From Betaproteobacteria bacterium (lineage in GTDB: Bacteria; Pseudomonadota; Gammaproteobacteria; Burkholderiales; SG8-39), in the NCBI GenBank assembly GCA_034668045.1, contig JAXDQC010000074.1, positions 1-57,698 of the forward strand: a stretch of DNA of 57,698 nt. Direction: 5' to 3'. Shown here piece by piece: positions 2,729-31,031 of the stretch; position 1 is the first letter of the stretch, and the number at the start of each line of letters is the position of its first letter. Under the pieces are notes generated by a model. It searched no databases. It was not told the origin of the DNA and worked only from the letters and a program-made list of their open reading frames with translations. A program made the translations under genes and the position numbers.

Positions 2729-2730
2729 GG

Positions 2731-8384: not shown

Positions 8385-9190
8385 CACGCCGCCGCCACGA
8401 AGGCTCGCAGCGTGTACTTGCTGCTTGGCTCGCGCAGGCGTTCCTCGCGCAGCAAGCGGAATCCGGATCGCCTCACCAGGGTGCGCGTCGACTCGGCGCT
8501 GAAGACGTGGTGATGGTCGATGCAGAACTCCTCGCGGCCCGGCCCGTCGACTTGCGCCGATTCGCCGTCGGGCACTTCCAGGTACACCGTACCGCCGGGA
8601 GCGAGCCAGCCGGCGGCTTTGCCCAGCATCTCCACGGGATCGAGCACGTGCTCGAGCACCTTGTTGAAGGTGATCAGGTCGTAGCGCCCGTGCGGCGCCA
8701 TGTGCATGAAATCGCCGCTGATCGCCTCGACGCCGACCACGTCGCGGGCGTGCGCCGCGGCGCGCGGGTCGGGGTCGAGCGCGATGCAGCGCCAGCCGGT
8801 CTCGGCCTCTAGCCGGTGCAGGAAGACGCACAGCCCTGAGCCGACGTCGAGCACCGAGAGCTTTTTCCCGGAACCGAAGTGTCCGTGCGCATACTCGACG
8901 ACACGCGCGACGCGGCCGGTGTTGTCCGACTTCTCCGGCAGCAGCGCAGTGATGCGGTCGAAGGCGCGGCGCAAGCCGTCGCCGCCGTAGGTGGCTTCGA
9001 CATAGGCGCCGGAATAGAGCCCGGACATGTCCATTTCGTGCTGCGAGACGAAGTGGCCGCAGCGGCGGCAGCGCGCCATGCGCCGGCGGTACTCGCCCTT
9101 GAGCGGAAAGCGCACCTCGCCCGCCGGCGGCTCGAGGTACTCGAACACCGTGTCGAACTCGCGCCCGCCGCAGAGGCACTGCTGGATCAT
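8384..9190 (-). CDS. Class I SAM-dependent methyltransferase with an N-terminal Cys4 zinc-ribbon-like motif
   Basis: Start at ATG 9190 in an ATGA overlap (MIQQCLCGG...ARCRRCGH). SAM motif I is LDVGSGLC. Confidence 0.75.
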
Positions 9191-9555
9191 TTGGCTTCGA
9201 GCGCTCGCAGCTTCTCGTCGCTGTCCATCCAGCACACGATCGCCAGGCGTTCGCTTTTCACGTAGGCGTCGAACTCGGCCTGCTTGCCCTTCTCCACCAG
9301 CAGCACGAAGTAGCGCCCGCTCGGGTTCTTCACCAGCACCGCGCGCAGGCCGAACGACGCGAGGCGGCCGTTGAGCGACGGCGTGGCATAGAAGCCCCAG
9401 TCCTTGCGCGCCAGATCGTATTCGGCGCCCGACTCGGTGACGAAGGTGACCTGCTCGTCGGGCGCGAGACGCAGCGTGCCGCAGTCGCGCATCGGGAATT
9501 TCTCGACGTTGCCGACCTGGAACACGCGCGGCGGACGCTTCTCGTCGAATTTCAT
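9187..9555 (-). CDS. Hypothetical 122-aa protein, no recognisable family
   Basis: [30 protein letters not shown]... ATGA overlaps at both ends (9552-9555 and 9187-9190) argue that it is translated. Confidence 0.6.
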
Positions 9556-10670
9556 GACCAGCTCCAGTCGGAAATCAGGAAATCCGGAATCAGCCAAACG
9601 CCGTTGCGCTGCTTCCAGACGTCCTGGTTGCGGAAGCGCTCGGCCATGCCGAAGAAGCGCTCCTCGGGGATCCCGGCGAAGGCGCAGAACCTGGCGATAT
9701 CGCCGCGCGGCGTCTGGTCGCCAGCGCGGCGCACTACGTCGATCGCCGCGTCGCGGCTCAGCCGACCGTTGCGGATCTCGAGCGACAGGTTGTCGAACAG
9801 GCGGGTGAAGCCGAACTTGTACCACTTCATCCAGTGATGGATGGAGATGAAGTCGTCGTCGATGTCGGCGAAGTCGTACAGGCCGGTGCGCGCGCCGCCC
9901 GGGTTCTCGCGGAAGCCGTGCTGCTTCGCCACGGCGTAGGTCTCGGCCGGGTCCCAGCGGAAGTAGTGGCCGAGGAAGACCGCGCGCACGCCGAGCGACT
10001 CCAGGCTGTCGGGATCCGGCCCCGCGTAAGCGGTCAGGTCGGCGGCGGAGAGCCCCTCGCCGACCCAGTCGGCCGCGGTGGTGCCGTGGGTGACCCCGTA
10101 GGTCGCGAGCCAGCGCCGGTCGAGCGCGTGCCCTTCGTGCGCCTTGTCGGCGCTGCCGTACTCGACCGCCGAGTTTTCGCCCCAGACGACGAGCGGCACC
10201 TGGAAGCGGACCGCGACCGTGAGCGGGATGTTGAACAGCGCCAGGTGCATCGGGATGGCGGTACTGCCGTGGCGCTCGAAGGCCTTGACCATGAAGCGCG
10301 CTTCGACCTTCGGGCTAATGCGATAGTCGATGTGGTCGACGCCGAGCGCGACCAGGTTGTCGAGGTTCTGCTGGCCGATCGCGGTGCGTCCCGGCGGCCG
10401 CCAGGTGACGCCGAGCGGCTTCAGGCCGGACTCCAGGCACGTCACCATCTGCCAGGTGCTGTCCTTGCCGCCGCTCACCGGCACGACGCAGTCGTAGCCG
10501 CGGCTCTTGGCGCGCGCCTGCTCGACCAGGCGGCGGAAGGCGGCCTCGCGCTCGGCCCAGTCGATGCGCGGCCGCGACTCGTGGCTGCGGCAGGCGTTGC
10601 AGATCCCCTCGACGTCGAGCTTCAGGCTCGGCCGCGTGTCGGGCAGGATGCAGCGCCGGCAGTACTTCAT
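9552..10670 (-). CDS. N-acetyl sugar amidotransferase (WbuX/WbpG/PseA family, PP-loop ATP-pyrophosphatase)
   Basis: 372 aa. Tetracysteine signature CRRC...GICNAC and PP-loop SGGKDS. ATGA overlaps on both sides. Confidence 0.85.
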   Translation of the reverse strand: MKYCRRCILPDTRPSLKLDVEGICNACRSHESRPRIDWAEREAAFRRLVEQARAKSRGYDCVVPVSGGKDSTWQMVTCLESGLKPLGVTWRPPGRTAIGQQNLDNLVALGVDHIDYRISPKVEARFMVKAFERHGSTAIPMHLALFNIPLTVAVRFQVPLVVWGENSAVEYGSADKAHEGHALDRRWLATYGVTHGTTAADWVGEGLSAADLTAYAGPDPDSLESLGVRAVFLGHYFRWDPAETYAVAKQHGFRENPGGARTGLYDFADIDDDFISIHHWMKWYKFGFTRLFDNLSLEIRNGRLSRDAAIDVVRRAGDQTPRGDIARFCAFAGIPEERFFGMAERFRNQDVWKQRNGVWLIPDFLISDWSWS

Positions 10671-12508
10671 GCGGGAACCGTGGCGCCGAATTCCTCGAGG
10701 AACAGCTTGGCGTTGAGGAAGTAGAAGAGGAACTTGCTTTCGCTGTTGGGCAGGTCGGGCCGCTCGAGGAGCGCGGCGATCTTCTCGCGCCGGATCAGGT
10801 CGAACACCGGGCTGTCGGCGAGCACCTCGCGCCGCACCGCCGGGTCGCGCACGTCGAGGAAATCGAAGATCGGCGCATTGAAGCCCACCTTACGGCGGTT
10901 GTCGAGCAGCGCCTGCGGCACCAGGCCGCGCACCGCGTCGCGCAGCACCGCCTTGGCGCGGCCGTGGCGCACCAGGTGGCGCGTCGGGATCGACTGGCAG
11001 AACTCGAACAGGTCGCGATCGAGGAACGGCGAGCGGTTCTCGATCGAGTAATACATCGCGTTGAGATCGTCCTCGTGCAGGATCACCGGGATCGTCTCGC
11101 GGAACAGCTCGTTCAGCATGCGGTTGCGCAGCAGCCGCCCGGCGAAGCGCTCCTCGGCGAAGCGCTCGACCCACGGCGCCGTGAGATAGGCGGCGAAGCC
11201 ATCCGCATCCATGAAGATGTGCTCGCGGAACTGCGGGTCGCGGACGAAGAGCTCGGGATCGCGCAGGTGCGGATTGCGCACCGCCGGCAGCACGTGCTCG
11301 CGCCAGGCGTCGAGCGAGCCGGCGTGCAGCGCCGCGTCGCCCTTCACCTCATAGAGGTAGGCGAGGTGGTGGTCGTAATAGCCGGTAAAGAGCTCGTCGG
11401 CGGCCGTGCCGCTCACCGAGATGCGATAGCCGTGCGCGGCGATGCTCTCCTGCAGCATCTGATGCGCGTAGTAGGTGATGGTGTACACCGGCGCGTCGTG
11501 GTAGCGCACCTGCTCGCGCAGCCGCGGCAGGAAATTCGCCGGGCTGACCGGAATCGCGGTGTGGCGCACGCCGAGCTCGCGCACCGCGAGGTCCACCATG
11601 TCCTGCTCCTCGTAGCGCGCGTCGGTGTTCACGATGGTGAAGCCGTGCACGTCGAAGTCGAACTCGCGCTTGGCGATGCCGATCAGCGCATTCGAGTCGA
11701 TGCCGCCGCTCATGCAGAAGGCGAGCGGCACGTCGGCGCGCAAGCGCAGCTCGACCGAGCGCACCAGCCGCTCGCGCGCGCCAGCCACCGCCTGCTCGTA
11801 GCTCATCTCGGCCTTCTCCACCGAGCGGGGGTTCCAGTAGCGCTCGAGCTTCTCGCCGCGCGCGTCGACGTGCAGCACGTGCGCGGCGGGCAGCTCGTCC
11901 AGCCCTTCGAAGAAGGTCTCGCGCCCCTTGTAGAGCGCCTTGTAGCCGTTCACCAGGAAGCGGCGCAGGTGGTTCAGGTTGGGTCGCAGCGGCCGGCCGA
12001 GCAGCGCGGCGATGAATTTGGGCTCCGAACCGAAATAGATTCCGCCGTCGGCACGATAGAGGTAGAGCGGCTTCTCGCCGAAGCGGTCGCGGCAGAGCGA
12101 GAGGCGCTTCGCCCGCTCGTCGTAGAAGGCGAACGCCCACATGCCTTCGCAGCGGTCGAGTGCACCCCAGCCTTCGCTGGCGAGGAGCTGCGTCAGGACT
12201 TCGGTGTCGGAATCGGTGCGGAACTTCGCGCCGCGCGCGGCGAGGTCGCGCTTGCGCTCGACATAGTTGTAGAGCTCGCCGTTGAGGATGATCGCGCGGC
12301 CGTCGTGCTCGAACGGCTGGTGCGAGCGCGGGTCGAGGTCGATGATCGACAGCCGGCTGTGCAGCAGCACGGCGTTGCGCTCGCCGTCCACCGGCCAGGT
12401 CTTGGTGGCCTGGTAGTCGGGGCCGCGCCGGCCCATGCGGCGCAGGCATTCCTTGAGCGCGCCTGGCTCGATGCGCCGCGGTCCGAAGTAGCCGGCGATG
12501 CCGCACAT
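10667..12508 (-). CDS. Asparagine synthase (glutamine-hydrolysing)-like amidotransferase (AsnB/WbpS-like)
   Basis: 613 aa. N-terminal MCGIAGY (Ntn nucleophile Cys2) and a synthetase PP-loop region (CMSGGIDS). Confidence 0.85.
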   Translation of the reverse strand: MCGIAGYFGPRRIEPGALKECLRRMGRRGPDYQATKTWPVDGERNAVLLHSRLSIIDLDPRSHQPFEHDGRAIILNGELYNYVERKRDLAARGAKFRTDSDTEVLTQLLASEGWGALDRCEGMWAFAFYDERAKRLSLCRDRFGEKPLYLYRADGGIYFGSEPKFIAALLGRPLRPNLNHLRRFLVNGYKALYKGRETFFEGLDELPAAHVLHVDARGEKLERYWNPRSVEKAEMSYEQAVAGARERLVRSVELRLRADVPLAFCMSGGIDSNALIGIAKREFDFDVHGFTIVNTDARYEEQDMVDLAVRELGVRHTAIPVSPANFLPRLREQVRYHDAPVYTITYYAHQMLQESIAAHGYRISVSGTAADELFTGYYDHHLAYLYEVKGDAALHAGSLDAWREHVLPAVRNPHLRDPELFVRDPQFREHIFMDADGFAAYLTAPWVERFAEERFAGRLLRNRMLNELFRETIPVILHEDDLNAMYYSIENRSPFLDRDLFEFCQSIPTRHLVRHGRAKAVLRDAVRGLVPQALLDNRRKVGFNAPIFDFLDVRDPAVRREVLADSPVFDLIRREKIAALLERPDLPNSESKFLFYFLNAKLFLEEFGATVPA

Positions 12509-12509
12509 A

Positions 12510-13523
12510 TCAGGAAACGTCCTCGGGACGAATCAGCTCATGGCGGCGGAGCGAGCGGCGCAGCTTGCGGCCGATGAGCTCGGCGGCGCGCGTCGGCGGC
12601 AGTCCCTCCCCCGGGCGCACGTAGTCGAAATCCGCGGCCGCGAGAACCGTCCCTTCGCCGAGCGCGCGGGCCGCGACCACGCTGCGCCGCACCGCGCGCG
12701 CGCTCGCGCGGTCGGCGATCGAATCGTCCTTCGCGCCCCCGCCGATGATGCGCTTCGCGCCCCGCACCAGCGCCGCCAGGCGGCTCATCTCGCCGGGATC
12801 GGCGGCGAGCGCATGGTCGCGGAAGGCGGAGGTGTTCTTGTCGAGCGTGAAGTGCTTCTCGATGATGCGCGCGCCGGCGCCGAGCGACATCAGCGCCACG
12901 TCGATGCCGAGTACGTGGTCGGAATAGCCGATGACGAGCCCGAACTTGTTCCGCAGGGTCGCGATGCCCTCGAGGTTCGCTTGCTCGGGCTGCGTCGGGT
13001 AGAGGCTCACGCAGTGCAGGAGGGCGAGCCGCTCCTCGAGGCGCGCGCCCACGGGGAGGGCGGCGCGAAACGTCGCCACGGCGTGCTCGATCTCCGGCAG
13101 GGTCGCCATGCCGGTCGAAAGCACCACCGGCTTGCCGCTCTTCGCGGCTAGCGCGAGCAGCGGGTCGAAATCGAGGTCGCCCGAGGCGATCTTGACCGCG
13201 TCGAGCGTCGGCAGGATCGCCGCCAGCGTATCGACGTCGAACGCCGAGGCCATGAAGATGCCGCGGCGTTCGTGCACCCGGCGGGCGATGTCCTGGTAGA
13301 CGGACACCGGCAGCTTGAAGCGCGACAGCTGCTTCACCCGCTCGGTCTGCTCGACCGAGACCAGGCGCTCCGGCTCGATCAGCTGGAACTTGACGATGTG
13401 CGCGCCGCAGTCGAGCGCTCGCTCGGCCAGCGCGAGCGCGGCGCGCGGATCGCCTTCGTGGTTGTTGCCGATCTCGGCGATCAGCAGCACCTCGCGGTCG
13501 GTGTCGAGCGCGCCGATCTTCAT
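12510..13523 (-). CDS. NeuB-family (sialic/pseudaminic/legionaminic acid-type) ulosonic acid synthase with a C-terminal SAF domain
   Basis: Start at the internal ATG 13523 in an ATGA overlap. MKIGALDTDREVLLIAEIGNNHEGD..., GYSDH. Confidence 0.85.
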   Translation of the reverse strand: MKIGALDTDREVLLIAEIGNNHEGDPRAALALAERALDCGAHIVKFQLIEPERLVSVEQTERVKQLSRFKLPVSVYQDIARRVHERRGIFMASAFDVDTLAAILPTLDAVKIASGDLDFDPLLALAAKSGKPVVLSTGMATLPEIEHAVATFRAALPVGARLEERLALLHCVSLYPTQPEQANLEGIATLRNKFGLVIGYSDHVLGIDVALMSLGAGARIIEKHFTLDKNTSAFRDHALAADPGEMSRLAALVRGAKRIIGGGAKDDSIADRASARAVRRSVVAARALGEGTVLAAADFDYVRPGEGLPPTRAAELIGRKLRRSLRRHELIRPEDVS

Positions 13524-14209
13524 TGCATCACCGCCCCGTCCCGCACGTGGGCGTGCAGCACATACTTCGCCTCCGCCACGCGGAAGCCCATCCGCTCGTA
13601 GAGCCGCATCGCTGCGGTATTCGCCAGCTGGGTACCGACCCGCAGCTTCTCGGCGCGTTGCGCCCAGCGCGCGGCGAACGCCTGGGTCAGGGTCTCGCCA
13701 AGCTTGCGGCCCTGCCGCTCGGGATGAACGGCCACGAGGTCGATCACCGCCGCGTTGCCCGCCTTCAGCACGGCGAGGAACCCCGCCGGCATGCCGTTCT
13801 CGACGACCACCAGCACCTCTTCGCCGCGCTTGCCGGCGAGGCAGTTCTCGGCCCAGGCGCGCTTCACGCGGTCGGCGAGCTCGCGCGGAAAGCGCGGATC
13901 GCGGTGGAAGCGCGACCAGACGAAGGCGCGCTCGGCGATCGCGAGCACCGGCTCTCGGTCGGCGGCGATTGCCTTGCGCACGTCTTTCGGCTCGCGCCGG
14001 CTCGCGGCGGCGCATTCGAGGACGACATGGGTATCGACGATGCGGAACCCCGCGGCGACGAAGCGCTCCAGGCGCGTGACTTCACTCACGGGCACCTTGG
14101 TGAAGAAGAAACCGTCGCGCTTCGCGGCAAGCTGCGCGGCATCAATCTCCGCGCCTGCCGAGTAGCAGGCGATGCCGGTCACGCTCGTGAGCCACCCGTC
14201 GGCGGTCAT
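13520..14209 (-). CDS. GNAT-family N-acetyltransferase (two-domain, WecD/PseH-like layout)
   Basis: Start at ATG 14209 in an ATGA overlap. Acetyl-CoA motif VHPERQGRKLG. Confidence 0.75.
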   Translation of the reverse strand: MTADGWLTSVTGIACYSAGAEIDAAQLAAKRDGFFFTKVPVSEVTRLERFVAAGFRIVDTHVVLECAAASRREPKDVRKAIAADREPVLAIAERAFVWSRFHRDPRFPRELADRVKRAWAENCLAGKRGEEVLVVVENGMPAGFLAVLKAGNAAVIDLVAVHPERQGRKLGETLTQAFAARWAQRAEKLRVGTQLANTAAMRLYERMGFRVAEAKYVLHAHVRDGAVMQ

Positions 14210-15243
14210 GGGGCGGCGCGGAATGCCTCCGGCATTCGCTTTGCCAGGCCCTTGTACCAGTCGATGTAGCGCACGAAGCCCTTCTCCAGCGGGAAGCTCG
14301 GCCGGTACCCGATCAACCGCTTCGCTTTCTCCACCGACAGCGTGCCGCGCTCGGGCATGAGCGCATCGCGCGGGCTGTACTTCACCTCGATGCCGGGGAA
14401 GTTCTGCTTCACGATCTCGGCCATCTGGTTGAGCGAGCGGGCGCCGCCGTAAGTGAGGTTGAACACCTGGTTGCGCGCCTCGGGCTTCTCGATGCACAGC
14501 ATCAGCCCCTGCACCAGATCGCCGATGTAGGTGAAGTCGAGCGCGTCGGTGCCGTCGCCGTTGATGGTGAGCGGCAGGCCGCGCAGCGCGTTCTCGATGA
14601 ACGCCTGGCCGACGCGGCGGCTGACGCAGCGCTCGCCATAGAGCGCCGAGGGCCGCACGATGGTGTAGGGCAGCTTGAACACCTGGTTGTAGGCGATCAC
14701 CAGCTTCTCGCCGCCGTACTTCAACGCGCCGTAAATCCCCATCGGCTCGCAATGGCGGTCTTCCGTCGCCGTCTGGCCGTCGAAATTCCCATACACCATG
14801 GAAGAGGAGAAGTAGATGAAATGCCGCTCGTGGCCGCGCGCGCAATCGAGCGCGTTCTCGAGCGTGCGGAAGCTGTGATCGAAGGTGCTGAAGGGATCCT
14901 TGTTGGCGCGATTGGCATGCGCGATGGCGGCGAGCTGGACGATGGTGTCCGGCTCGATGTCGGTGAGACAGCGGGAAAGCACCTGGTAGTCGCGCGCGTC
15001 GACGACATGCAGGGGAATATTCGCCTCGTGCAGCGCCGCAAGGCGCTCGTAGACCAGGTTCATGTACAGCGTCTTGCTCGGGTCATTCGAAGCGCTCGAG
15101 AACGCACCGAGGTTGTTGACCTGCAGGCCGTCGACGATGTGCGGCTTGGCGCCGCGGGCCGCCAGCGCGAGCGCCAGGTTGTGTCCGATGAAGCCGGCGC
15201 CGCCGATCAAAGCGATTCGACGTCCGGCGAGTGCGTCTGCCAT
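14206..15243 (-). CDS. Extended-SDR NAD-dependent sugar epimerase/dehydratase
   Basis: 345 aa. GGAGFIGHNL Rossmann motif and catalytic YGALK. Confidence 0.8.
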   Translation of the reverse strand: MADALAGRRIALIGGAGFIGHNLALALAARGAKPHIVDGLQVNNLGAFSSASNDPSKTLYMNLVYERLAALHEANIPLHVVDARDYQVLSRCLTDIEPDTIVQLAAIAHANRANKDPFSTFDHSFRTLENALDCARGHERHFIYFSSSMVYGNFDGQTATEDRHCEPMGIYGALKYGGEKLVIAYNQVFKLPYTIVRPSALYGERCVSRRVGQAFIENALRGLPLTINGDGTDALDFTYIGDLVQGLMLCIEKPEARNQVFNLTYGGARSLNQMAEIVKQNFPGIEVKYSPRDALMPERGTLSVEKAKRLIGYRPSFPLEKGFVRYIDWYKGLAKRMPEAFRAAP

Positions 15244-16397
15244 TATTTGCTCTCCCTCAAGGCTTGCGCGAATTGCCGCGCGATGTAATCGATGTCTTCA
15301 TCCCCGACGTGCGGTCCGACCGGCAGCGCGATCGCGTGATCGCTGATTCGTGCCGCATTCGGAAAGCGGCTGGCATCGTAGCCGTACTTGTCCCGGTAGT
15401 ACTTCAGCCGCGGCACCGGGTGCGGGTAGTAGACGCTCGTCCCCACGCCCGCGGCGTTCAGCTTGGCGACCATCGCATCGCGCCGCTGGCCCGCGCCGCC
15501 CTCGAGCAGCGCGGTCAGGCAGTAGTGGCTGTTCTCCGCGTGCTTCGCTTGTACGTCGAGGACGCGCACGTTCTCGAGCTGCGAGAGCGCCGCCTTCAGC
15601 CGGGCGAAATTGCTCCGCCGCCTATCGAGCATGATGTTCAGGCGCTCGAGCTGCTTGCGGCCGATCGCGGCATTGATGTCGCTCATGCGGTAGTTGATGC
15701 CGAGCGTCGGCACGTCGTAGACGCCCGGGATCGCGCGTTCGGCAAAGCCGCGGTCGACGCCGAACGCACGTGCCTTCGCCACCTTCGCGGCAAGCTCGGC
15801 GTGCCGGCTGACGAACATGCCGCCGTCGCCGGTGGTGATGTGCTTCACCGGGTAGAACGAGACGATAGCCGCGTCGCCGAAGAGGCCAGCGTGCTTGCCG
15901 CGCCAGCGCGTGCCGACGGCGAGCGCGCAGTCTTCGATCACTTTGAGCTTGTGGCGCTCGGCGATCGCCATGATGGCGTCCATGTCGCAGGGAATGCCGG
16001 CGTAATGGACCAGTCCTATCGCGCGCGTGCGCGGCGTGATCAGCGCCTCGATCTGGGCCGGGTCCATGTTGCCGGTCGCGAGATCGCAGTCGGCGAACAC
16101 CGGCTTGGCGCCGACCACCTCCACCGCGTGCGCGGTGGCGACGTGCGTCTGCGCCGCGACGATGACCTCATCGCCCGCGCCGATGCCGAGCTGCCAGTAG
16201 GCGAGATGCAGCGCCGCCATGCCCGAGCTGGTGGTGAGGCAGTGGCCGCCGCCGAGGACCGCGGCGAATTCCTTCTCGAAGGCGTGCGCCTGCGGGCCGT
16301 GCGTCAGCACGTCGCCGGAGAGCACCTGCATCACGGCGTTTTTCTCGGCGTCGGTGATCCACGGGCGGCCGAAGGCGATCTTGCGGGTTTCGTTCAT
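15243..16397 (-). CDS. DegT/DnrJ/EryC1/StrS-family PLP-dependent sugar aminotransferase
   Basis: Start at ATG 16397 in an ATGA overlap (MNETRKIAFGRPWI...). PLP-lysine context SFYPVKHITTGDGG. Confidence 0.88.
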   Translation of the reverse strand: MNETRKIAFGRPWITDAEKNAVMQVLSGDVLTHGPQAHAFEKEFAAVLGGGHCLTTSSGMAALHLAYWQLGIGAGDEVIVAAQTHVATAHAVEVVGAKPVFADCDLATGNMDPAQIEALITPRTRAIGLVHYAGIPCDMDAIMAIAERHKLKVIEDCALAVGTRWRGKHAGLFGDAAIVSFYPVKHITTGDGGMFVSRHAELAAKVAKARAFGVDRGFAERAIPGVYDVPTLGINYRMSDINAAIGRKQLERLNIMLDRRRSNFARLKAALSQLENVRVLDVQAKHAENSHYCLTALLEGGAGQRRDAMVAKLNAAGVGTSVYYPHPVPRLKYYRDKYGYDASRFPNAARISDHAIALPVGPHVGDEDIDYIARQFAQALRESK

Positions 16398-17395
16398 GGG
16401 TACTCGATGGTTTGGGGCTTGCGCTCCGCGGCGGCGCGGTCGCACGCCAGGCAGATGGCAATGCCGTCGAAGAAGGATTGCGTCACGGCGTCATAGCCAG
16501 GCGCACCGGCAATGGCGTCGAGAAAGGGCCGGATCAGTTCGCCTTTTCCCGCCGGCAGCGCCGCCATCGGCATGCGCTCGGCGGTCTCGCCCGGATCCCG
16601 GCTGCGGTGCATGCGCGGCCCCTGGTCGTCGTAGAGGAATGTCGCGCGCGTGCCGAAAGCGCGCACCACATGCTGGTGCCGGTGCACGCTGCCGAAGTTG
16701 GCCGTGATGCGCGCCACCAGCCCTGAGGCGAATTCCAGCGTCGCGGCGCGAAAATCGTCGTAGCGAAAGCCGGAGCCTTCGGTGGAAATGCGGTTCCCGG
16801 CGGCGCTGACGCGGCTGGGACGCTCGCCGGTGAGCCAGAGCAGCAGGTCGACGAGGTGGATGCCGCCGCCCAGCATCACTGAGTAGTCGCCGATGCCGCT
16901 GCGCCAGCCCTCGGTGATCTTGTGCAGCCGGCCGTACAGGTAATCGCCATCGAACGCATAGAGAGCGCCCAGCTCGCCGTTCTCGATGCTGCGCTTGAGG
17001 GCGAGATAGGCTGGCGCGGTGCGCAGGACGAGATTGCTGCCGATCTTCACGCGTCCGCCGCTTCGCGCCCAGAGCACTTTCAGCTCGGCGAGCTGCGCGC
17101 TCGTCATGCAGAGCGGCTTCTCGACGAAGACGTGCTTTCCCGCCTGCAACGCGTCGCGCGCCTGCTTGAAGTGCGCGTCGTCGAAGGAGGCGATCGAGAC
17201 CACCTGCACCGACGCATCGCTCAGAACGGCTTCGTAGTCGTTGGCCGTGCGGCTGCCGGGAAACTGCGCGGCGAGGCGTTCGGCACGCTGCCGGTCGAGG
17301 TCATGGAGCCAGACGATTTTGGCGCGAGGATCGGCGGCATAAGCCCGCGCATGCTGCTCGCCGACGCCCAGACCGACGACGGCCACGCCGATCAT
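16394..17395 (-). CDS. Gfo/Idh/MocA-family NAD(P)-dependent oxidoreductase
   Basis: Start at ATG 17395 in an ATGA overlap (MIGVAVVGLGVGEQHA...). VFVEKPL motif. Confidence 0.85.
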   Translation of the reverse strand: MIGVAVVGLGVGEQHARAYAADPRAKIVWLHDLDRQRAERLAAQFPGSRTANDYEAVLSDASVQVVSIASFDDAHFKQARDALQAGKHVFVEKPLCMTSAQLAELKVLWARSGGRVKIGSNLVLRTAPAYLALKRSIENGELGALYAFDGDYLYGRLHKITEGWRSGIGDYSVMLGGGIHLVDLLLWLTGERPSRVSAAGNRISTEGSGFRYDDFRAATLEFASGLVARITANFGSVHRHQHVVRAFGTRATFLYDDQGPRMHRSRDPGETAERMPMAALPAGKGELIRPFLDAIAGAPGYDAVTQSFFDGIAICLACDRAAAERKPQTIEYP

Positions 17396-18057
17396 TGGGG
17401 GGCCTCGACGGCGGACGCGAAGCTCGGCACCGATCCAGCGGCGATCAGGGCTTCGACGGCCTGCAGATCCTCCCTCGTGTCGACGGCGAGCGAGCGGCGG
17501 CTGGCGGCGGCTTCGCGGCACGCCACGTTGCGCACGCGGAACCTGCCCGGTGCGCGATACAGAGCGAGCGTCACGTGCTCGCGCTCCTCTGCCGTCCACG
17601 CAGCAGTGTCGATGCCGGCAAAGCACTCGGCGCGGACGACCTCGACGCTTTGTCCGGGTGGAAAGGTGCGCGGCTGCACGTTGGTGATGAGGTCGTATTG
17701 CGGCCCCCGCCGGGCGGCAACCTCGACGACGAGCTCGGGGTCGATGAGCGGGCTGTCGCCGCTGATGCGCACGAACCACTCGCACGGATGCGCGGCGAGG
17801 CACTGCTGGAATCGCTTCGCGACATTCTCCAGGTCGCCGCGAAACAGGGCATGGCCGTGACGCGCGGCGAACGCCGCCAGCAGATCGTCGCTCGAGTCGA
17901 CGCTCGTCGCCAGCACGACGCGCTGCGGACCGAAGGCGCGGCCGCAACGCTCCAGGACATGCGCGATCAGCGGCCGCCCGGCGAGCGGCGCCAGGACTTT
18001 GCCGGGAAAGCGCCGCGAGCTCATGCGCGCCTGGACGAAGATACGGACCGCGCTCAC
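17392..18057 (-). CDS. Cytidylyltransferase-family protein (SpsF/PseF/NeuA-like nucleotide-sugar activating enzyme)
   Basis: GTG start at 18057 (VSAVRIFVQARMSSRRFPGKVLAPLAGRPLI) in a GTGA overlap with the stop of the upstream MarR-like ORF. The longer 290-aa track ORF is rejected. Confidence 0.72.
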   Translation of the reverse strand: MSAVRIFVQARMSSRRFPGKVLAPLAGRPLIAHVLERCGRAFGPQRVVLATSVDSSDDLLAAFAARHGHALFRGDLENVAKRFQQCLAAHPCEWFVRISGDSPLIDPELVVEVAARRGPQYDLITNVQPRTFPPGQSVEVVRAECFAGIDTAAWTAEEREHVTLALYRAPGRFRVRNVACREAAASRRSLAVDTREDLQAVEALIAAGSVPSFASAVEAPQ

Positions 18058-18382
18058 CGCTGCCGGGCCTCGCGCCGCAAGCGGTCGATCTCCTTGCGCA
18101 ACGCCTCGTATTCGGCCGTCTTGCGCTGCAGGAAGTGCAGCGCGTTGCGCGATTTCGCGCTCACGCCGCGCGGCGTCAGCACGTACAGGTAGGCGCGCTT
18201 GTTCTTGCTGTTGCGGAAGTTGTTGGCCTTGACCAGGCCGCGGCCGATCAGCGCCTTCAGGCAATAGTTGACCTTGCCGACGCTGACGCCGAGCTGCTCG
18301 GCGAGCGCGCGCTGCGAGACCTTCGGGTCGCGCTCAAGCTCGCGCAGGATGCGGAAATGCGGCTCTTCCAGAAACCCCCCAT
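18054..18382 (-). CDS. MarR-family EPS-associated transcriptional regulator (TIGR04176-like). The start codon is unresolved: the nearest ATG is out of frame across a G6 tract
   Basis: Absent from the ORF track. The minus-strand frame 18380..18054 reads GGFLEEPHFRILRELERDPKVSQRALAEQLGVSVGKVNYCLKALIGRGLVKANNFRNSKNKRAYLYVLTPRGVSAKSRNALHFLQRKTAEYEALRKEIDRLRREARQR*. It has an in-frame TGA at 18389..18387 and no in-frame ATG, GTG or TTG near the N-terminus. The ATG at 18382..18380 would be in frame only if the C6 run at 18375-18380 held one more C. Confidence 0.75.
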
Positions 18383-18401
18383 TTGTTCAATCGTTGAACA
18401 A
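18383..18401. promoter_or_regulatory. Perfect 8-bp inverted repeat TTGTTCAA-TCG-TTGAACAA in the 41-bp divergent intergenic region; candidate MarR operator
   Basis: Read directly from the sequence: 18383-18390 is the reverse complement of 18394-18401. It abuts the regulator start region and lies 23 bp upstream of the ATG at 18424. Confidence 0.4.
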
Positions 18402-18423
18402 TCTGGCATTATATCCTTGTCGG

Positions 18424-20345
18424 ATGAGGCTTGGCTTCCTGCTCCTGGCCCCCGCCGTCGTCTGTGCCGGACAGGATCTGCACGTCTCTCCCTCGGGCCC
18501 GAGCCTCGAAAGCGTGCTGGAAGCGGCGGCTGAGAAGCCCGGCACCACCGTGTGGATTGCGAGCGGCGTCTATGAGCTGCAGCGCTCCCTGCGGCTCGAC
18601 GCGCGGCACTCGGGCATCGCGCTACGGGCGATGCCCGGCGAAGAAGTGCGGCTCAGCGGCGCGCGCGTCCTGCCGATCGAGAGCTTCGGACGGCCGAGCG
18701 TCGCGCAGCGTGAGCGACTTGACCCGGCGGCGAAGGATCAGGTCGTCGTCATCGACCTCAAGGCGCTCGGCATAAAGGACTTCGGCAGCATCGCCGCCGA
18801 TGGGGCCGAGGTGTTTTTCGATGATCGCCCATTGCCTCTCGCCCGTTGGCCTAACGAAGGCTTCGCGACTGACTTGCTAACCACTGGCGGCGCGCCGTTC
18901 GAGAAGCTCGGATACAAGGGCGACCGACTAGGCGTGTTCACCTATGCAGGAGAACGGCCCGAGCGCTGGCTGCGAGAGAAAGATCTCTGGCTGCACGGTT
19001 ACTGGTTCTGGGACTGGGAGGACATCTACCAGCGCGTCGCCTCGCTTGACCCTCGGAAGAAGCTCATTTACCTGCAGCCGCCCGTCTATTGGAATGGCTT
19101 CCGTGACGGCGCCCGCTATTTCGTGCTCAACGCCCTGAGCGAGCTCGACCAGCCGGGCGAGTGGTATCTCGACCGCGAAGAAAGAATGCTTTACTTATGG
19201 CCGCCGCAACCGCTTGCCGGGGCACGCATCACCCTGTCGATGCTGCGTGACCCCGTGATCGCCATCACGAACGCTTCAAGGGTGGTGATGAGCGGACTGA
19301 CCATCGAAGGGGGCCGCAACAACGGAATCGAGATCGCTGGCGGTGCCGGCAATGTCGTCTCTGGATGCACCGTGCGGAACCTCGGCGGCTGGGGAATTGT
19401 CGTCACCAGCGGCAACAGCCACACCATCGAGCGCTGCCAGCTCTCGCAGCTCGGCCGCGGTGGCGTGCTCCTCGCCGGCGGCGAGCGCACTACCCTCGAG
19501 CCCGGCGCGCATGCGGTCATCGACAGCCGCATCTTCGACTACGCCCGCCTGAAACGCGCCTATGCGCCGGGCGTGAAGCTGGCAGGCGTGGGCCACCGCG
19601 TGCAGAACAACGAGATCTTCGATGCACCGCACATCGCCGTCTGGTTTGCCGGCAACGACCACCTTATCGAGCGCAACGAGATCCGCGGCGTCTGCCGCGA
19701 GACCGGCGATGCCGGCGCGATCTACGCTGGGCGGGACTGGACCGAGCGCGGAACCGTGATCCGCCACAACTACATCCACGACGTCTCCGGGCTGGGCGAG
19801 CACGGCTGCCAGGCGATCTATCTCGACGACATGGCAAGCGGCATCGTCGTCACCGGCAACATCACGCGCGGCAGCCGGCGCGGCATTCTCATGGGGGGCG
19901 GACGGGACAATGTCGTCGAAGACAACGTGCTCATGGACTGCACCGAATCGGTGGTCTTCGATAACCGCGGCCTGAAATCGTACCGTGAAGCCGTCAAGCC
20001 GCCCGACGGCGTCATGGTGCGGCACCTGGCGCAGATGCCGGTCGATCGCCCGCCGTGGTCGACGCGCCATCCCGAGCTGCAGCGCTTGCTTGCCGACAAT
20101 CCCGGCTCGCCGAAGAACAACGTCATCCGGCGCAACATCGCCTGGCGCTGCCCGCCGCCGAAGCTCGCGCGGGAGGTGGTGCGCTTCGGCCGCGTCGAGG
20201 ACAACGAGCCATGGTTCGTCGATCCCGGCATCATCGCCGCCGACGGCAAGCTCGATCTGCCAGCCGGCGCACCGATCGTGCGCGGCGAGCCGGCGCTGCG
20301 AAATTTCCCGGCCGATTCCATCGGCCCGCGCCCGGCGGCGGCGCG

Positions 20346-20349
<4 letters not shown>
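18424..20349 (+). CDS. Secreted right-handed parallel beta-helix repeat protein (polysaccharide lyase/hydrolase-like)
   Basis: Start at ATG 18424 gives the signal peptide MRLGFLLLAPAVVCAGQD. PbH1-like repeats follow (NNGIEIAGGAGNVVSGCTVRNLGGWGIVVTSGNSHTIERCQL...). The longer track ORF starting at 18268 would overlap the regulator and is rejected. Confidence 0.72.
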
Positions 20350-21628
<1,279 letters not shown>

Positions 21629-21632
<4 letters not shown>

Positions 21633-22585
21633 TTTTGCAGGACCGGCCGGGCGGCCGCATTGCCGACATACCACTCGTACGCGGCGCGCAGGCCGCGCTC
21701 CAGCGGCGTCTTTGCCGACCAGCCGAGCGCGCGCAGCCGGGAGACGTCCATGACCTTGCGCGGCATGCCGTCGGGCTTCGATGGATCGTATTCGAAGCTG
21801 CCGCTCCAGCCGGCAATACCGGCGACCAGCTCGGCGAGCTCGCGGATGGTGATGTCTTCGCCGGTGCCGACGTTGATGTGGCCCTCGCCGGAGTAGTTCC
21901 GCATGAGAAAGACCAGCGCGTCCGCCAGGTCTTCGACGTAGAGAAATTCGCGCTTCGGCTGGCCGGTGCCCCAGATGCGCATCGATTTTTCGCCCCGCTC
22001 CCTGGCGGCGTGGACCTTCACGAGCATGGCCGCCGCCACATGCGAGGTTTCGGGGTCGTAGTTGTCGCCCGGGCCGTAGAGATTGGTCGGCATGGCCGAG
22101 ATGAAATCGCAGCCGTATTGGCGGCGGTAAGCCTCGCAGAGCTTCATGCCGGCGATCTTCGCCACGGCGTACCACTGGTTGGTCGGTTCCAGCGGCCCGG
22201 TCAGCAGAGCGGCTTCAGTCATGGGCTGCGAAGCCGCGCGCGGATAGACGCAGGAAGAACTGAGGAACAGGAGCTTCTCGACGCGGGCCTGCCACGCGGC
22301 GTGGATGACGTTCGCTTCGATCAGGAGGTTGTCGTAGATGAACTCTGCCGGGTGAGTATCGTTGGCGTGGATTCCCCCGACCGTGCCGGCGGCGAGGAAG
22401 ACCGCCTGGGGTCGATGGCGCTTCAGCCATTGCTCGACCTGCTCCTGCCGGCGCAGATCGACTTCGTCGCGCCCGACCGTCAGTACTTCGCAGCGTTCCG
22501 CGCCGAGACGCCGCACGATGGCCGAGCCGGCCATGCCACGGTGGCCGGCGACCCAGACCCGCTTGCCCTCAAGCGCGTAGCTCAT
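21629..22585 (-). CDS. fcl: GDP-L-fucose synthase
   Basis: 318 aa. VWVAGHRGMAGSAI..., SSCVYP, YAVAKIAG, and NLYGPGDNY, typical of Fcl/WcaG. Confidence 0.9.
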
Positions 22586-31024: not shown

Positions 31025-31031
31025 GGAGCGA

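Follow-up and report, generated by a model that had tools for sequence, protein, structure and literature searches.

Several bacterial pathways pair a Gfo/Idh/MocA dehydrogenase with a DegT aminotransferase, as in WbpB/WbpE, GnnA/GnnB and NtdC/NtdA, and the characterised sugar dehydrogenases of the former family oxidise mostly at C3. C3-oxidation/elimination chemistry is also used by the NAD-dependent glycosidases GH4 and GH109, the second of which has the Gfo fold, and the uronamides and 3-acetamidino uronic acids of Pseudomonas O-antigens are products of AsnB and WbuX enzymes. In Bacillus subtilis use of Leg genetically requires spsF, and the dehydratase gene spsM lies at a locus separate from spsC-G (PMC7439481). 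The Campylobacter jejuni PtmG protein is described as the equivalent amidotransferase to WbuX, and deacetylation and formylation have been shown to proceed on the CMP-sugar (preprint 10.64898/2026.04.20.719630). Here we analyse a window of 57,698 nucleotides (the whole stretch of DNA under study, 68% G+C) in which a NeuB-type synthase is encoded together with a Gfo/DegT pair and amidotransferases of these kinds. All features given below by coordinates are encoded on the minus strand.

Results

A ten-gene operon conserved across phyla

GC3-based gene calls gave six genes between positions 12510 and 18057, which encode an SpsF-type cytidylyltransferase, a Gfo/Idh/MocA oxidoreductase, a DegT aminotransferase, an extended SDR, a WecD-like GNAT and a NeuB synthase with a SAF domain. 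An earlier note on this DNA had named these families and considered the genes coupled, and the gene calls, Pfam and NCBIfam searches and gene overlaps bear this out. The boundary it had drawn at 12510 was too narrow, as the unit extends to 8384 and takes in four further coupled genes encoding an AsnB-type protein, WbuX, a 122-residue protein and a SAM methyltransferase. The genes are linked by ATGA or TAATG start/stop overlaps, nearly all ten via ATGA. Between 7800 and 18400 no promoter-like site was found, and terminator-like sites did not exceed the frequency seen in shuffled sequence. Given the ATGA overlaps, the lack of internal promoter-like sites and the same gene order at other loci, 8384-18057 is a single operon of ten translationally coupled genes.

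The comparison set comprised 83 related loci with flanks of up to 10 kb, 60 of which had enough flank for gene order to be counted. The core was collinear in 44 of the 60, and a further six retained the cytidylyltransferase, Gfo, DegT and SDR genes, in this order, immediately 5' of neuB. Cassette loci occur in more than ten phyla and were found in Proteobacteria, Chloroflexota, Verrucomicrobiota, Planctomycetota, Cyanobacteria, Actinomycetota and SAR11, with the same gene order in Methylocystis, Anaerolineales and Azospirillum. Our literature search found no publication describing the cassette.

Textbook dehydratase and hydrolase genes are missing beside the cassette

No protein of the 57.7-kb window contained an Epimerase_2 domain (the NeuC/LegG fold) or a PseG-type GT28 domain, or had Polysacc_synt_2 as its best family. 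When the window was searched by tblastn with PGAP-annotated NeuC, PseG, LegB and CapD references, only RmlB and one other SDR were recovered, at about 30% identity. Hence, the absence of a CapD/PseB/LegB-type dehydratase that the earlier note had reported extends to the whole window, as judged by tblastn, the family searches and the SDR motif described below, and so does that of a PseG/NeuC/LegG-type hydrolase or 2-epimerase. NeuC/LegG, PseG and true LegB or PseB were likewise absent beside the cassette in about 50 cassette loci (10 kb flanks). Among all 83 loci the NeuC type was found solely in L084, a non-cassette outgroup, true LegB only in the non-cassette L082, and the PseG type in none within flanks of up to 10 kb; CapD-like genes near cassettes were confined to the far flanks of L019 and L079. 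No phosphatase, kinase or hydrolase family recurred alongside the cassette in the flanks of the related loci. As the same absence is seen throughout these loci, it is a property of the cassette rather than a peculiarity of this contig.

The missing 4,6-dehydratase and hydrolase of an ordinary Leg/Pse pathway might be encoded elsewhere in the genome, with the Gfo protein and SDR acting in tailoring (for example C4 or C8 epimerisation through oxidation and reduction) to give a stereoisomer. The separate spsM locus of B. subtilis (PMC7439481) is a precedent, a PseI-like gene (H17) lies on a large A. brasilense replicon that possibly belongs to a cassette-bearing strain, the related A. brasilense Sp7 has a canonical pseG/pseI cluster, and DegT, GNAT and NeuB of the cassette are Pse/Leg-like. 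However, the canonical clusters recovered by the same searches (L084, L086, L087 and L090) hold these genes together, whereas none of the roughly 50 cassette loci, which span more than ten phyla and include streamlined SAR11 genomes, has them within 10 kb. Moreover, a block that crosses phyla would be expected to be self-sufficient, and NeuB, DegT and the cytidylyltransferase all score below the curated Pse/Leg cut-offs. We consider this arrangement unlikely.

Cytidylyltransferase, dehydrogenase, aminotransferase and acetyltransferase

The first gene of the operon (17392-18057; 221 residues from an inferred GTG start; CTP_transf_3, PF02348, 5.5e-22) probably encodes a CMP-ulosonate synthetase. 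Its best PDB match was the Leptospira cytidylyltransferase 6OEW (82 bits), with KdsB aligning to the N-terminal half only; in the NCBIfam search KdsB subfamilies gave the top score (70 bits) and the PseF model gave no match. It is 39% identical over 203 residues to the SpsF-type protein encoded beside pseI in the canonical Pse cluster of A. brasilense Sp7. The next gene (16394-17395, 333 residues), which has ATGA overlaps on both sides, encodes an NAD-dependent sugar oxidoreductase of the Gfo/Idh/MocA family (PF01408, PF22725 and PF02894; N-terminal domain 6e-23, C-terminal domain 3e-19). Its top named NCBIfam models, IolG (92 bits) and archaeal UDP-GlcNAc 3-dehydrogenase (73 bits), both fell far below cut-off, and PDB matches included 6JW6 (70 bits) and WbpB (49 bits). 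The DegT/DnrJ/EryC1 PLP-dependent sugar aminotransferase (15243-16397, 384 residues; PF01041, 3e-116) has PseC, ArnB and Per as its nearest named relatives, scoring 291 bits with PseC (cut-off 423), 261 with ArnB and 217 with LegC (cut-off 420) in NCBIfam and 216, 204, 193 and 156 bits with ArnB, perosamine synthase, QdtB and KdnA in the PDB.

The two-domain N-acetyltransferase (13520-14209, 229 residues; PF00583 and PF13508) has the two-domain WecD/RffC as its best named relative in NCBIfam, the dTDP-Fuc4N acyltransferase models scoring 96 and 68 bits, under their cut-offs, and its residues 38-218 align with WecD (PDB 2FS5). The gene is missing from SAR11 and some Planctomycetota loci, and one locus that lacks it, L054, contains a formyltransferase gene.

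The extended SDR lacks the dehydratase glutamate

The SDR (14206-15243, 345 residues; Epimerase, PF01370, 7e-40) is the most conserved protein of the cassette, with 55-89% identity between phyla. It scored well below the cut-offs for RmlB (106 bits against 365) and LegB (70 against 475) and gave 20 bits with PseB; its top PDB matches were UDP-GlcNAc 4-epimerase 6WJB, Pal 6BWL and UDP-GlcA 4-epimerase 6ZL6. The motifs S146-S147-S148-M149-x-Y151-G152 and Y171xxxK175 were invariant in 51 orthologues, so that at the position of the catalytic glutamate of RmlB, LegB and Gmd, in (S/T)(D/S)E, the cassette SDRs show an invariant methionine (SSSM-x-YG). Judged by these residues, the SDR is epimerase/oxidoreductase-like rather than a classical 4,6-dehydratase or a hidden LegB, although a conserved insert and the motifs H109 and N114-K115-D116, all unique to it, may mean a function other than epimerisation.

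These residues also bear on a scheme in which each Pse/Leg step would have a direct replacement: the SDR would form the 4-keto nucleotide sugar, DegT and GNAT the 4-acetamido group, Gfo would take the place of the missing hydrolase, and NeuB and the SpsF-type enzyme would finish the pathway. Gfo would transiently oxidise C3 to acidify H2, the nucleotide would leave C1, water would re-add with possible inversion at C2, and the bound NADH would then reduce C3. The scheme has the merit of matching six enzymes to six steps, four of them from the expected families, and no other release candidate recurs in the 83 loci; the mostly C3-acting Gfo enzymes would suit such an elimination better than placement of an amino group where NeuB could use it, and the Gfo protein is weakly similar to glycoside and disaccharide 3-dehydrogenase families. 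However, GH109 structures were not among the best 60 PDB sequence matches to Gfo, we know of no Gfo enzyme that hydrolyses nucleotide sugars, known dehydratases and decarboxylases have an acid/base residue that the SDR does not, which makes it hard to see how a 4-keto product would be formed and released, and the overlapping Gfo and DegT genes resemble a classical oxidation-transamination pair. We therefore regard one-for-one replacement as distinctly improbable.

The NeuB synthase

NeuB (12510-13523, 337 residues) consists of a PEP-condensing ulosonic acid synthase domain (PF03102, 3e-58) and a C-terminal SAF domain (PF08666, 1e-10), and fell below both curated equivalog cut-offs (NeuB_NnaB, 246 bits against 400; PseI, 187 against 340). 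The catalytic, metal and PEP residues of Neisseria meningitidis NeuB are kept in 71 of 71 cassette NeuBs, with E134 replaced by D and N184 by S, T or A. At position 184 the protein of the window has Ser, as do the PseI and LegI references, in contrast to the Asn of Neisseria NeuB. In neighbour-joining trees it was separate from the PseI, LegI and Neisseria NeuB references. Of 100 bootstrap replicates, 99 kept the PseI references and 92 the LegI references out of the clade with the core cassette NeuBs, although strict monophyly of all cassette NeuBs had a bootstrap value of only 23%. The placement that the earlier note had put forward as a check thus gave no clustering with any of these references. 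The nearest non-cassette NeuBs include that of L082, a cluster with LegB-, PtmE- and HisH/HisF-like genes.

Amination could instead follow condensation: a common sugar would be turned by NeuB into a Kdn-, Kdo- or Neu-like acid, Gfo, DegT and GNAT would add the acetamido group to the free or CMP-linked ulosonate, much as KdnB and KdnA do for Kdo8N, and the SDR would epimerise the CMP-sugar. Such a route would no longer need a nucleotide-sugar hydrolase, and nucleotide sugars are possibly preferred for acetimidoylation (preprint 10.64898/2026.04.20.719630). With the 156 bits given above, DegT is clearly related to KdnA (5K8B), the aminotransferase for Kdo8N, and the top Gfo models act on free cyclitols or sugars (IolG, levoglucosan dehydrogenase and others). 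But the source of the free aldose would be unaccounted for, as neither phosphatase nor 2-epimerase genes recur in the neighbourhood of the cassette; Ser184 is that of PseI and LegI; and to our knowledge a dehydrogenase and aminotransferase acting on a CMP-nonulosonate would be without precedent. This order of events seems to us decidedly unlikely.

Tailoring genes and neighbouring modules

The AsnB-type glutamine-hydrolysing amidotransferase (10667-12508, 613 residues; PF00733 and GATase_7) has the N-terminal Cys2 and an SGGIDS PP-loop and exceeds the TIGR01536 cut-off (343 bits against 267). Its gene comes right after neuB in 44 of the 60 loci used for counting gene order, WbuX-lacking ones among them, and is missing or displaced in six that otherwise retain the cassette; it is a near-core member. 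WbuX (9552-10670, 372 residues), an N-acetyl sugar amidotransferase (TIGR03573, 313 bits against a cut-off of 203), is predicted to convert an acetamido to an acetimidoyl group and shares 30% identity with WbuX from a canonical Leg cluster, one in which HisH and HisF are present too. Its ammonia donor is probably the HisH-like glutaminase (with HisF) whose gene is truncated by the contig end (1-498) and whose product is 40% identical to HisH of the A. thermophilum Leg cluster; downstream of the cassette HisH and HisF are found in L041, L049 and L066 and HisH alone in L031 and L048.

The conserved 122-residue protein (9187-9555) belongs to an unannotated family and had no Pfam match. The family comprises 2070 clusters at 90% identity, every one named 'hypothetical', and 385 representatives at 50% identity, many of which are N-terminal fusions of about 400 residues; the partner is Methyltransf_23 in P0251, P0255 and P0266 and GNAT in P0244. 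Its AF2 model (pLDDT 87.5) matched no PDB fold at E ≤ 0.001. The protein is probably an adaptor or substrate-binding domain serving the tailoring methyltransferase. That class I SAM methyltransferase (8384-9190; 268 residues from the ATG at 9190; PF13489, 2.6e-20) ends the coupled string, its gene overlapping that of the 122-residue protein by ATGA. In 28 of 37 collinear loci it comes after WbuX and the small protein. Genes for acetimidoyl and N-methyl tailoring speak for an amino sugar of the Leg/Pse kind.

The sulfation module (2731-7890; APS_kinase, GTP_EFTU and Sulfotransfer_3 domains) consists of a CysN/CysC fusion (5641-7890), a 591-residue protein without a family match (3869-5644) and a sulfotransferase (2731-3954). 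Downstream of the cassette the sulfotransferase family recurs in 16 loci and APS kinase in seven, and the module is an accessory decoration.

The nucleotide-sugar 6-dehydrogenase that the earlier note had placed at 20346 is genuine (20346-21656; TIGR03026, 365 bits against a cut-off of 190) and TviB-like (441 bits, cut-off 592). It lies 2.3 kb upstream of the cassette and has homologues in nine related loci, in L068 (the example examined) directly upstream of the cassette. The dehydrogenase is loosely associated and may supply a uronic acid to the same glycan. The earlier note had also weighed a WbpB/WbpE/WbpD-like 3-amination to a 2,3-diacetamido uronic acid, which this dehydrogenase would feed, leaving NeuB and the cytidylyltransferase with an undefined substrate; in the form considered here AsnB would amidate the acid and those two enzymes would serve an unrelated sugar. 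The proximity of the dehydrogenase and the AsnB and WbuX roles in Pseudomonas O-antigens fit that reading. It is nevertheless weak: Anaerolineales loci carry a separate triad of Gfo, LbH-acetyltransferase and DegT adjoining the full cassette, and a 3-amino hexose would leave the ulosonate ring without O6. In addition, NeuB and the cytidylyltransferase have a fixed place in the gene order of the cassette at 44-50 of 60 loci, the acetyltransferase is a WecD-like GNAT rather than a WbpD-type left-handed beta-helix, and most loci lack the dehydrogenase. We think it very improbable.

Discussion

The cassette appears to encode a NeuB-type pathway without the textbook dehydratase and hydrolase, as the earlier note had proposed and as the related loci, the SDR motif, the NeuB scores and the trees support. 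Our best explanation, held tentatively, is that the ten genes make a CMP-activated N-acyl/acetimidoyl amino-ulosonic acid, related to Leg and Pse, for the LPS or capsule glycan of the window, and that the cassette may be horizontally spread and largely self-contained. From family membership, the Gfo dehydrogenase would oxidise a nucleotide-linked N-acetylhexosamine to a keto sugar, which DegT would transaminate; the WecD-like GNAT would N-acetylate the new amine, for which a formyltransferase may substitute in some lineages. The SDR, as its catalytic motif suggests, would act as a C4-type epimerase or oxidoreductase. Since it would not act as a dehydratase, the sugar probably retains its terminal hydroxyl and would not be 9-deoxy. 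An activity matching no known family in the cassette would then remove the nucleotide; as no cassette enzyme accounts for this release, the scheme is incomplete. It must also assume C4 (or other) regiochemistry for Gfo, because C3 amination would give no normal ulosonate ring. NeuB, with its catalytic residues intact, would join the free sugar to PEP and the SpsF-type enzyme would form the CMP-sugar. WbuX with HisH and HisF would convert acetamido to acetimidoyl, methylation of the sugar would, by analogy with PtmG and PtmH, fall to the 122-residue protein and methyltransferase, and the AsnB-type enzyme would amidate some carboxylate. Sulfation and further methylation would differ by lineage.

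We found no earlier description of the product or of part of this chemistry, and the cassette appears to be a widespread unit making what is likely a decorated sialic-acid-like surface sugar. The relatives of DegT and GNAT, Ser184 of NeuB, the L082 neighbour and the WbuX score suggest a substrate related to those of the Leg and Pse pathways. Compared with these systems, the best reading of the cassette is that oxidation and transamination take the place of 4,6-dehydration.

Extent and conservation of the operon

Genes were called by third-position G+C because, at the approximately 68% G+C of the window, mechanically generated ORF lists contain a great many shadow ORFs. The earlier note had described a unit of six genes in 12510-18057, and all six were called on the minus strand with domain matches (E-values of 1e-10 to 1e-116): a CTP_transf_3 cytidylyltransferase (17392-18057), a Gfo/Idh/MocA oxidoreductase (GFO, 16394-17395), a DegT aminotransferase (15243-16397), an extended SDR (14206-15243), a GNAT acetyltransferase (13520-14209) and a NeuB synthase with a SAF domain (12510-13523). 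These assignments rest on Pfam domains, joined for the GNAT protein by NCBIfam and PDB matches that give the two-domain WecD as its closest named relative. The six genes exist, but the unit does not end with them, as four more genes follow on the same strand with ATGA-type overlaps. These encode an AsnB-type glutamine amidotransferase (10667-12508; TIGR01536, 343 bits, cut-off 267), a WbuX-family N-acetyl sugar amidotransferase (9552-10670), a conserved 122-aa protein that lacks a Pfam family (9187-9555), and a class I SAM methyltransferase recognized by its Pfam domain (8384-9190). The WbuX protein matches the full TIGR03573 profile at 313 bits, over the curated cut-off (203.2) for the WbuX/PseA/PtmG/WbpG family. 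A scan for promoters and terminators at the operon boundaries gave nothing above chance. We refer to the ten genes (8384-18057) as the cassette.

Downstream of the cassette on the same strand lie genes encoding a CysN/C fusion, a sulfotransferase, a TauE exporter, a DUF4910 protein and a HisH-like glutaminase. The remainder of the window is a lipopolysaccharide/polysaccharide region with GDP-fucose and dTDP-rhamnose genes, a Wzy_C protein, an MsbA-like ABC transporter and a heptosyltransferase. In that region the mechanical RmlA ORF and RmlB (29148-30284 and 30023-31090, minus strand) share about 260 bp; RmlA probably starts close to residue 88 of the mechanical ORF, where its Pfam match begins. 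Two large proteins of the polysaccharide locus that lack a Pfam family, of 591 aa (3869-5644, minus strand) and of 555 aa (27486-29153, plus strand), are glycosyltransferase or polymerase candidates; the 45 ORF families that are most widespread in the surroundings of the cassette include neither. Divergent from the cassette is a 693-aa right-handed beta-helix protein (18268-20349, plus strand; N-terminal start uncertain) with a weak GH141-insertion match, which could be a glycan-modifying or glycan-degrading enzyme.

The same ten genes are found in the same order on contigs of Methylocystis sp. B8, in a complete Anaerolineales genome (NeuB proteins 55-57% identical), and on the Azospirillum brasilense MTCC4039 plasmid p5. 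The p5 copy, the one found in a plasmid collection, has no more than generic PGAP names. A scan of one genome per species gave 80 loci. These belong to Burkholderiales, Rhodocyclaceae (Ca. Propionivibrio aalborgensis and Sulfuritalea among them), Afipia, Xanthobacteraceae, Rhodospirillales, Steroidobacteraceae, Pelagibacteraceae, Anaerolineales, Dehalococcoidia, Verrucomicrobiota, Planctomycetota, Desulfobacterota, Methylomirabilota, Binatia, SAR324, Cyanobacteria (Leptolyngbya PCC 6406) and Actinomycetota. Gene order was counted by tblastn with the ten window proteins in 60 distinct loci having enough flank to judge. The order cytidylyltransferase-GFO-DegT-SDR-(GNAT)-NeuB-AsnB was collinear on one strand in 44 of the 60 (GNAT included in 41 of the 44), and in six further loci the first four genes lie directly upstream of NeuB. 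Of the 37 collinear loci whose right flank is long enough, 28 go on to the WbuX, small protein and methyltransferase genes. Thus, six or seven genes form a near-invariant core of the cassette, to which a tailoring module of three genes is frequently added. The SDR is its best-conserved member (55-89% identity by tblastn in related loci). In one locus, L054, the GNAT gene is absent and a formyltransferase gene is present.

As judged from the encoded sequences, the cassette is a conserved, mobile operon specifying a predicted competent NeuB-type synthase, an SpsF-type cytidylyltransferase, an oxidoreductase/aminotransferase/acetyltransferase set, and an SDR that is predicted not to be a dehydratase.

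The NeuB synthase and the cytidylyltransferase

The window NeuB passes both Pfam thresholds (PF03102, 197.6 bits versus a cut-off of 22.1; SAF, 42.5 versus 21). The window protein keeps all of the metal, PEP and catalytic residues of Neisseria meningitidis NeuB (E25, K53, Q55, K129, S132, S154, Y186, S213, H215, E234, H236, D247 and R314). Each is also conserved in 71 of 71 cassette NeuBs, apart from R314 (70 of the 71). At the position of Neisseria NeuB Asn184 the window protein has serine, as do the PseI and LegI references. The window protein fell below the cut-offs of both curated models, TIGR03569 (NeuB_NnaB, N-acetylneuraminate/legionaminate synthase; 246.4 bits, cut-off 399.65) and TIGR03586 (PseI; 187.4 bits, cut-off 340.25). 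Annotation sources name the cassette synthase N,N'-diacetyllegionaminate synthase or 'family protein'. Its identity is 29% to N. meningitidis NeuB, 30-34% to Campylobacter jejuni PseI and PGAP-named PseI proteins, and 35-39% to PGAP-named NeuBs in LegI contexts; this range of 29-39% to characterized or PGAP-named references compares with a median of 45% inside the cassette clade.

Phylogenetic placement of NeuB, a check proposed in the earlier note, set the core cassette clade apart from the PseI references in 99 of 100 neighbor-joining bootstrap trees and from the LegI references in 92 of 100. When the long SAR11 branches are included, all cassette NeuBs are strictly monophyletic in only 23 of 100; these branches are unstable and a partial, uncharacterized Leptospira sequence (PDB 6NCS) moves in and out of the clade. 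The robust outcome is limited to the exclusion of the characterized PseI and LegI references. For the synthase and the cytidylyltransferase the best matches among solved structures, 6NCS and 6OEW, are both uncharacterized Leptospira structural-genomics proteins, and Leptospira may have a related NeuB and SpsF pair with structures already solved.

The cytidylyltransferase (PF02348, 79 bits versus a Pfam cut-off of 22.6) reaches no curated equivalog and is remote from PseF, LegF and KdsB. It is a putative CMP-ulosonate synthetase, the one pointer to an ulosonate substrate being its 39% identity to the SpsF-type gene adjoining pseI in A. brasilense Sp7. In Bacillus subtilis spsF is genetically required for legionaminic acid use (PMC7439481).

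The SDR is not a disguised LegB- or RmlB-type dehydratase

In known 4,6-dehydratases a glutamate abstracts the C5 proton. We aligned 51 cassette SDRs with the RmlB and Gmd proteins of the window and two LegB references. The dehydratases have the motif STDE, STSE or SSSE (STSE in the LegB references), whereas the cassette SDRs have an invariant SSSM with the Tyr-x3-Lys pair intact. The proton-abstracting glutamate is thus absent from the cassette SDR, and with methionine invariant at this position in 51 orthologues, a LegB- or RmlB-type dehydratase in disguise was ruled out. The SDR also scores far under the RmlB, LegB and PseB models (70 bits to LegB, TIGR04180, with a cut-off of 475). Among solved structures it is best matched by the UDP-GlcNAc 4-epimerase 6WJB, Pal (6BWL) and a UDP-glucuronate 4-epimerase, and the family has its own conserved insert and motifs.

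Search for the missing dehydratase and hydrolase

The earlier note had found neither a CapD/PseB/LegB-type dehydratase signature nor a PseG/NeuC/LegG gene, and both observations held for the whole window. When its roughly 45 proteins were searched with Pfam and NCBIfam for the missing genes, nothing came up beyond Gmd, Fcl, RmlB and one ambiguous SDR. The window has no 4,6-dehydratases other than Gmd and RmlB, both genuine; no protein had a PseG-type domain, an Epimerase_2 domain (the NeuC/LegG fold) or Polysacc_synt_2 as its best family, and the top PseB (TIGR03589) scores were 20-34 bits (cut-off 408).

We extended the search to 83 numbered related loci (flanks up to 10 kb) using reference NeuC, PseG, LegB, CapD-type, PseF, LegF, PseH, LegH, HisH and HisF proteins from PGAP-annotated canonical Leg/Pse clusters of Azospirillum and Mesorhizobium plasmids, plus further NeuC and LegB-like SDR queries from an Aestuarium plasmid (submitter annotation). 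The two PGAP PseG references gave no tblastn match at E<=1e-5 in the window or the 83 loci. NeuC references matched only L084, a canonical cluster with an outgroup NeuB, and a weak 127-aa fragment in L012. True LegB (54% identity) was found only in L082, a non-cassette locus, and CapD-type genes only in the far flanks of two of the 83 loci. All-against-all clustering of the flank ORFs revealed no recurring phosphatase, kinase or hydrolase. A canonical pathway with its dehydratase and hydrolase encoded at other genome sites has a precedent in B. subtilis spsM (PMC7439481); we consider it unlikely for the cassette.

A proposed route

We tentatively favor a route in which the keto intermediate for transamination would come from the GFO dehydrogenase rather than from 4,6-dehydration, the SDR would act as an epimerase, and nucleotide release would fall to an activity with no known assigned enzyme. 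The product would be a Leg- or Pse-like amino-ulosonic acid, probably with its terminal hydroxyl kept.

The DegT protein is closest to PseC, ArnB and the perosamine synthases but is also near the 3-aminotransferase QdtB and the Kdo8N enzyme KdnA, so its regiochemistry cannot be read from similarity. If the sugar were instead modified after condensation, as for Kdo8N, the GFO and DegT proteins would be late tailoring enzymes, which seems rather improbable.

Two readings assign sugar release to GFO itself. One is a one-for-one replacement in which GFO would release the sugar by GH4/GH109-type oxidation and elimination, and we give it little credence. The other holds that the cassette is an unrecognized fourth route to sialic-acid-like sugars, in which GFO would replace PseG/LegG/NeuC, the methionine SDR would replace the 4,6-dehydratase and a new ulosonic acid would be made. 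GFO would then free, and perhaps 2-epimerize, the sugar by transient C3 oxidation and elimination, GH4/GH109-type chemistry acting on a nucleotide sugar. The product could be, for example, a 5,7-diamino sugar with its 9-hydroxyl kept, or an 8- or 10-carbon analogue, and it would undergo acetimidoylation, N-methylation, amidation and sulfation as additional modifications. We regard this proposal as doubtful.

The earlier note had also offered a competing reading in which GFO, DegT and GNAT carry out a 3-amination like that of WbpB, WbpE and WbpD. Two Anaerolineales loci (L002 and L003) bear on this. Directly upstream of the cassette (2717-5340) they have another full set of GFO, hexapeptide acetyltransferase and DegT genes, a Wbp-like triad, and thus a Wbp-like module and the cassette coexist. 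Given this separate triad and the locking of NeuB and the cytidylyltransferase into the cassette, the 3-amination reading is very improbable, and a simple Wbp-type triad was rejected as the main interpretation. L002 and L003 also have, downstream, a protein of the LIC12162 Pfam family, named for a Leptospira gene.

Tailoring genes and recurrent neighbors

The predicted acetimidoyl and methyl tailoring genes of the cassette are analogous to C. jejuni PtmG and PtmH (preprint 10.64898/2026.04.20.719630). The HisH-like glutaminase gene at the window edge (1-498, minus strand) is truncated by the contig end, and its HisF partner would sit just past that end. A HisH/HisF pair is the usual ammonia donor of WbuX-type amidotransferases. 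AsnB was ruled out as the WbuX donor, as it is kept in loci lacking WbuX and HisH/HisF are found in several loci.

The family of the 122-aa protein comprises about 2070 clusters at 90% identity, none of which has a name (385 representatives at 50%). In the 50%-identity library many members are the N-terminal domain of proteins of about 400 aa, the C-terminal part of which is Methyltransf_23 or, in one case, GNAT. From these fusions we read the protein as a putative adaptor or substrate-binding domain for tailoring enzymes. Its AF2 model is confident (pLDDT 87.5), yet no PDB fold matched at E<=0.001.

ORF clustering also gave the recurrent neighbors of the cassette: more methyltransferases, including the sugar C-methyltransferase type, MarR-like and NusG-like regulators, HisH and HisF, and in nine loci a nucleotide-sugar 6-dehydrogenase, whose gene directly precedes the cassette in L068. 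A sulfate-activation and sulfotransferase module (2731-7890) and TauE (1844-2728) share the minus strand with the window cassette. Sixteen other loci have a member of the sulfotransferase family of this module downstream of the cassette, and APS kinase recurs in seven, a recurrence which suggests that the glycan, or the sugar itself, is sulfated. The DUF4910/DUF2172/HTH_47 protein (504-1847, minus strand), which is aminopeptidase-like, belongs to a family found near the cassette in 15 loci including that of Methylocystis (L001).

A gene of the Methyltransf_13/14 sugar C-methyltransferase type lies upstream of the cassette in L026 (3019-4281) and in ten other loci. C-methylation would yield an ulosonic acid with an extended carbon skeleton. 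C10 CMP-keto acids that lack an assignment have been reported in Magnetospirillum gryphiswaldense, together with CMP-linked HexNAc-like species (preprint 10.64898/2026.04.20.719630). Solving the cassette could offer a possible explanation for unassigned CMP-linked keto acids found by mass spectrometry in environmental bacteria.

Significance

Nonulosonic acids are located at the outer tip of bacterial surface glycans and control charge, recognition by phages and the immune system, and the assembly of flagella. To our knowledge, genome-based prediction of these sugars uses only three biosynthetic logics, those of Neu, Leg and Pse. Pipelines that require PseB/LegB plus PseG/LegG/NeuC would overlook or mis-assign the cassette, which is carried by bacteria from soil, freshwater, wastewater and the sea that belong to more than ten phyla and include SAR11. 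Its breadth and unexplained chemistry should interest glycobiologists: solving it could give a new sugar, a new way of freeing a sugar from its nucleotide, and a function for a hypothetical family of about 2000 clusters that partners methyltransferases.

Comparison with known systems

A full-text literature search found no description of the cassette. We compared it with four known systems. With the Pse pathway of Campylobacter and Helicobacter (PseB, PseC, PseH, PseG, PseI and PseF) it shares a DegT enzyme, a GNAT, a NeuB-family synthase with SAF and a CTP_transf_3 enzyme, and PseC is the top-scoring curated model for the cassette DegT. However, neither in the window nor next to any cassette locus is there a PseB-type (Polysacc_synt_2) inverting dehydratase or a PseG hydrolase; the PseC, PseI and PseB scores are all below cut-off, there is no PseF or PseH match, and the GFO, SDR and AsnB genes are additional.

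[quoted passage not shown] The WbuX/PtmG-type amidotransferase followed by a methyltransferase recalls Leg5AmNMe7Ac tailoring, and HisH at the window edge resembles the HisH/HisF pair of the A. thermophilum Leg cluster. The NeuB of L082, a cluster with LegB-, PtmE-, HisH- and HisF-like genes, is among the closest non-cassette NeuBs. Unlike the Leg systems, the cassette has an SDR matching LegB at 70 bits (cut-off 475) and missing the catalytic glutamate, has no NeuC/LegG and no PtmE-type nucleotidyltransferase, and its acetyltransferase is a GNAT rather than the hexapeptide type of LegH.

The WbpA/WbpB/WbpE/WbpD/WbpI route to UDP-2,3-diacetamido-2,3-dideoxy uronic acids, like GnnA/GnnB, has adjoining Gfo/Idh/MocA and DegT genes followed by N-acetylation, as in the cassette. 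A nearby nucleotide-sugar 6-dehydrogenase and the WbpG-like WbuX and WbpS-like AsnB tailoring enzymes add to the likeness. In contrast, the cassette acetyltransferase is a GNAT and not a WbpD-type left-handed beta-helix, the match of GFO to WbpB is weak (49 bits), and NeuB and a cytidylyltransferase invariably accompany the cassette.

Kdo8N synthesis, in which Shewanella KdnB and KdnA act on Kdo, uses an iron alcohol dehydrogenase as oxidase in place of Gfo/Idh/MocA and KdsA as synthase in place of NeuB, and it lacks the SDR, GNAT and AsnB. Nevertheless, KdnA is a clear homologue of the cassette DegT, and the Shewanella pathway resembles the route proposed for the cassette in that oxidation and then DegT-family transamination place an amino group, there on an ulosonic acid, with no dehydratase.
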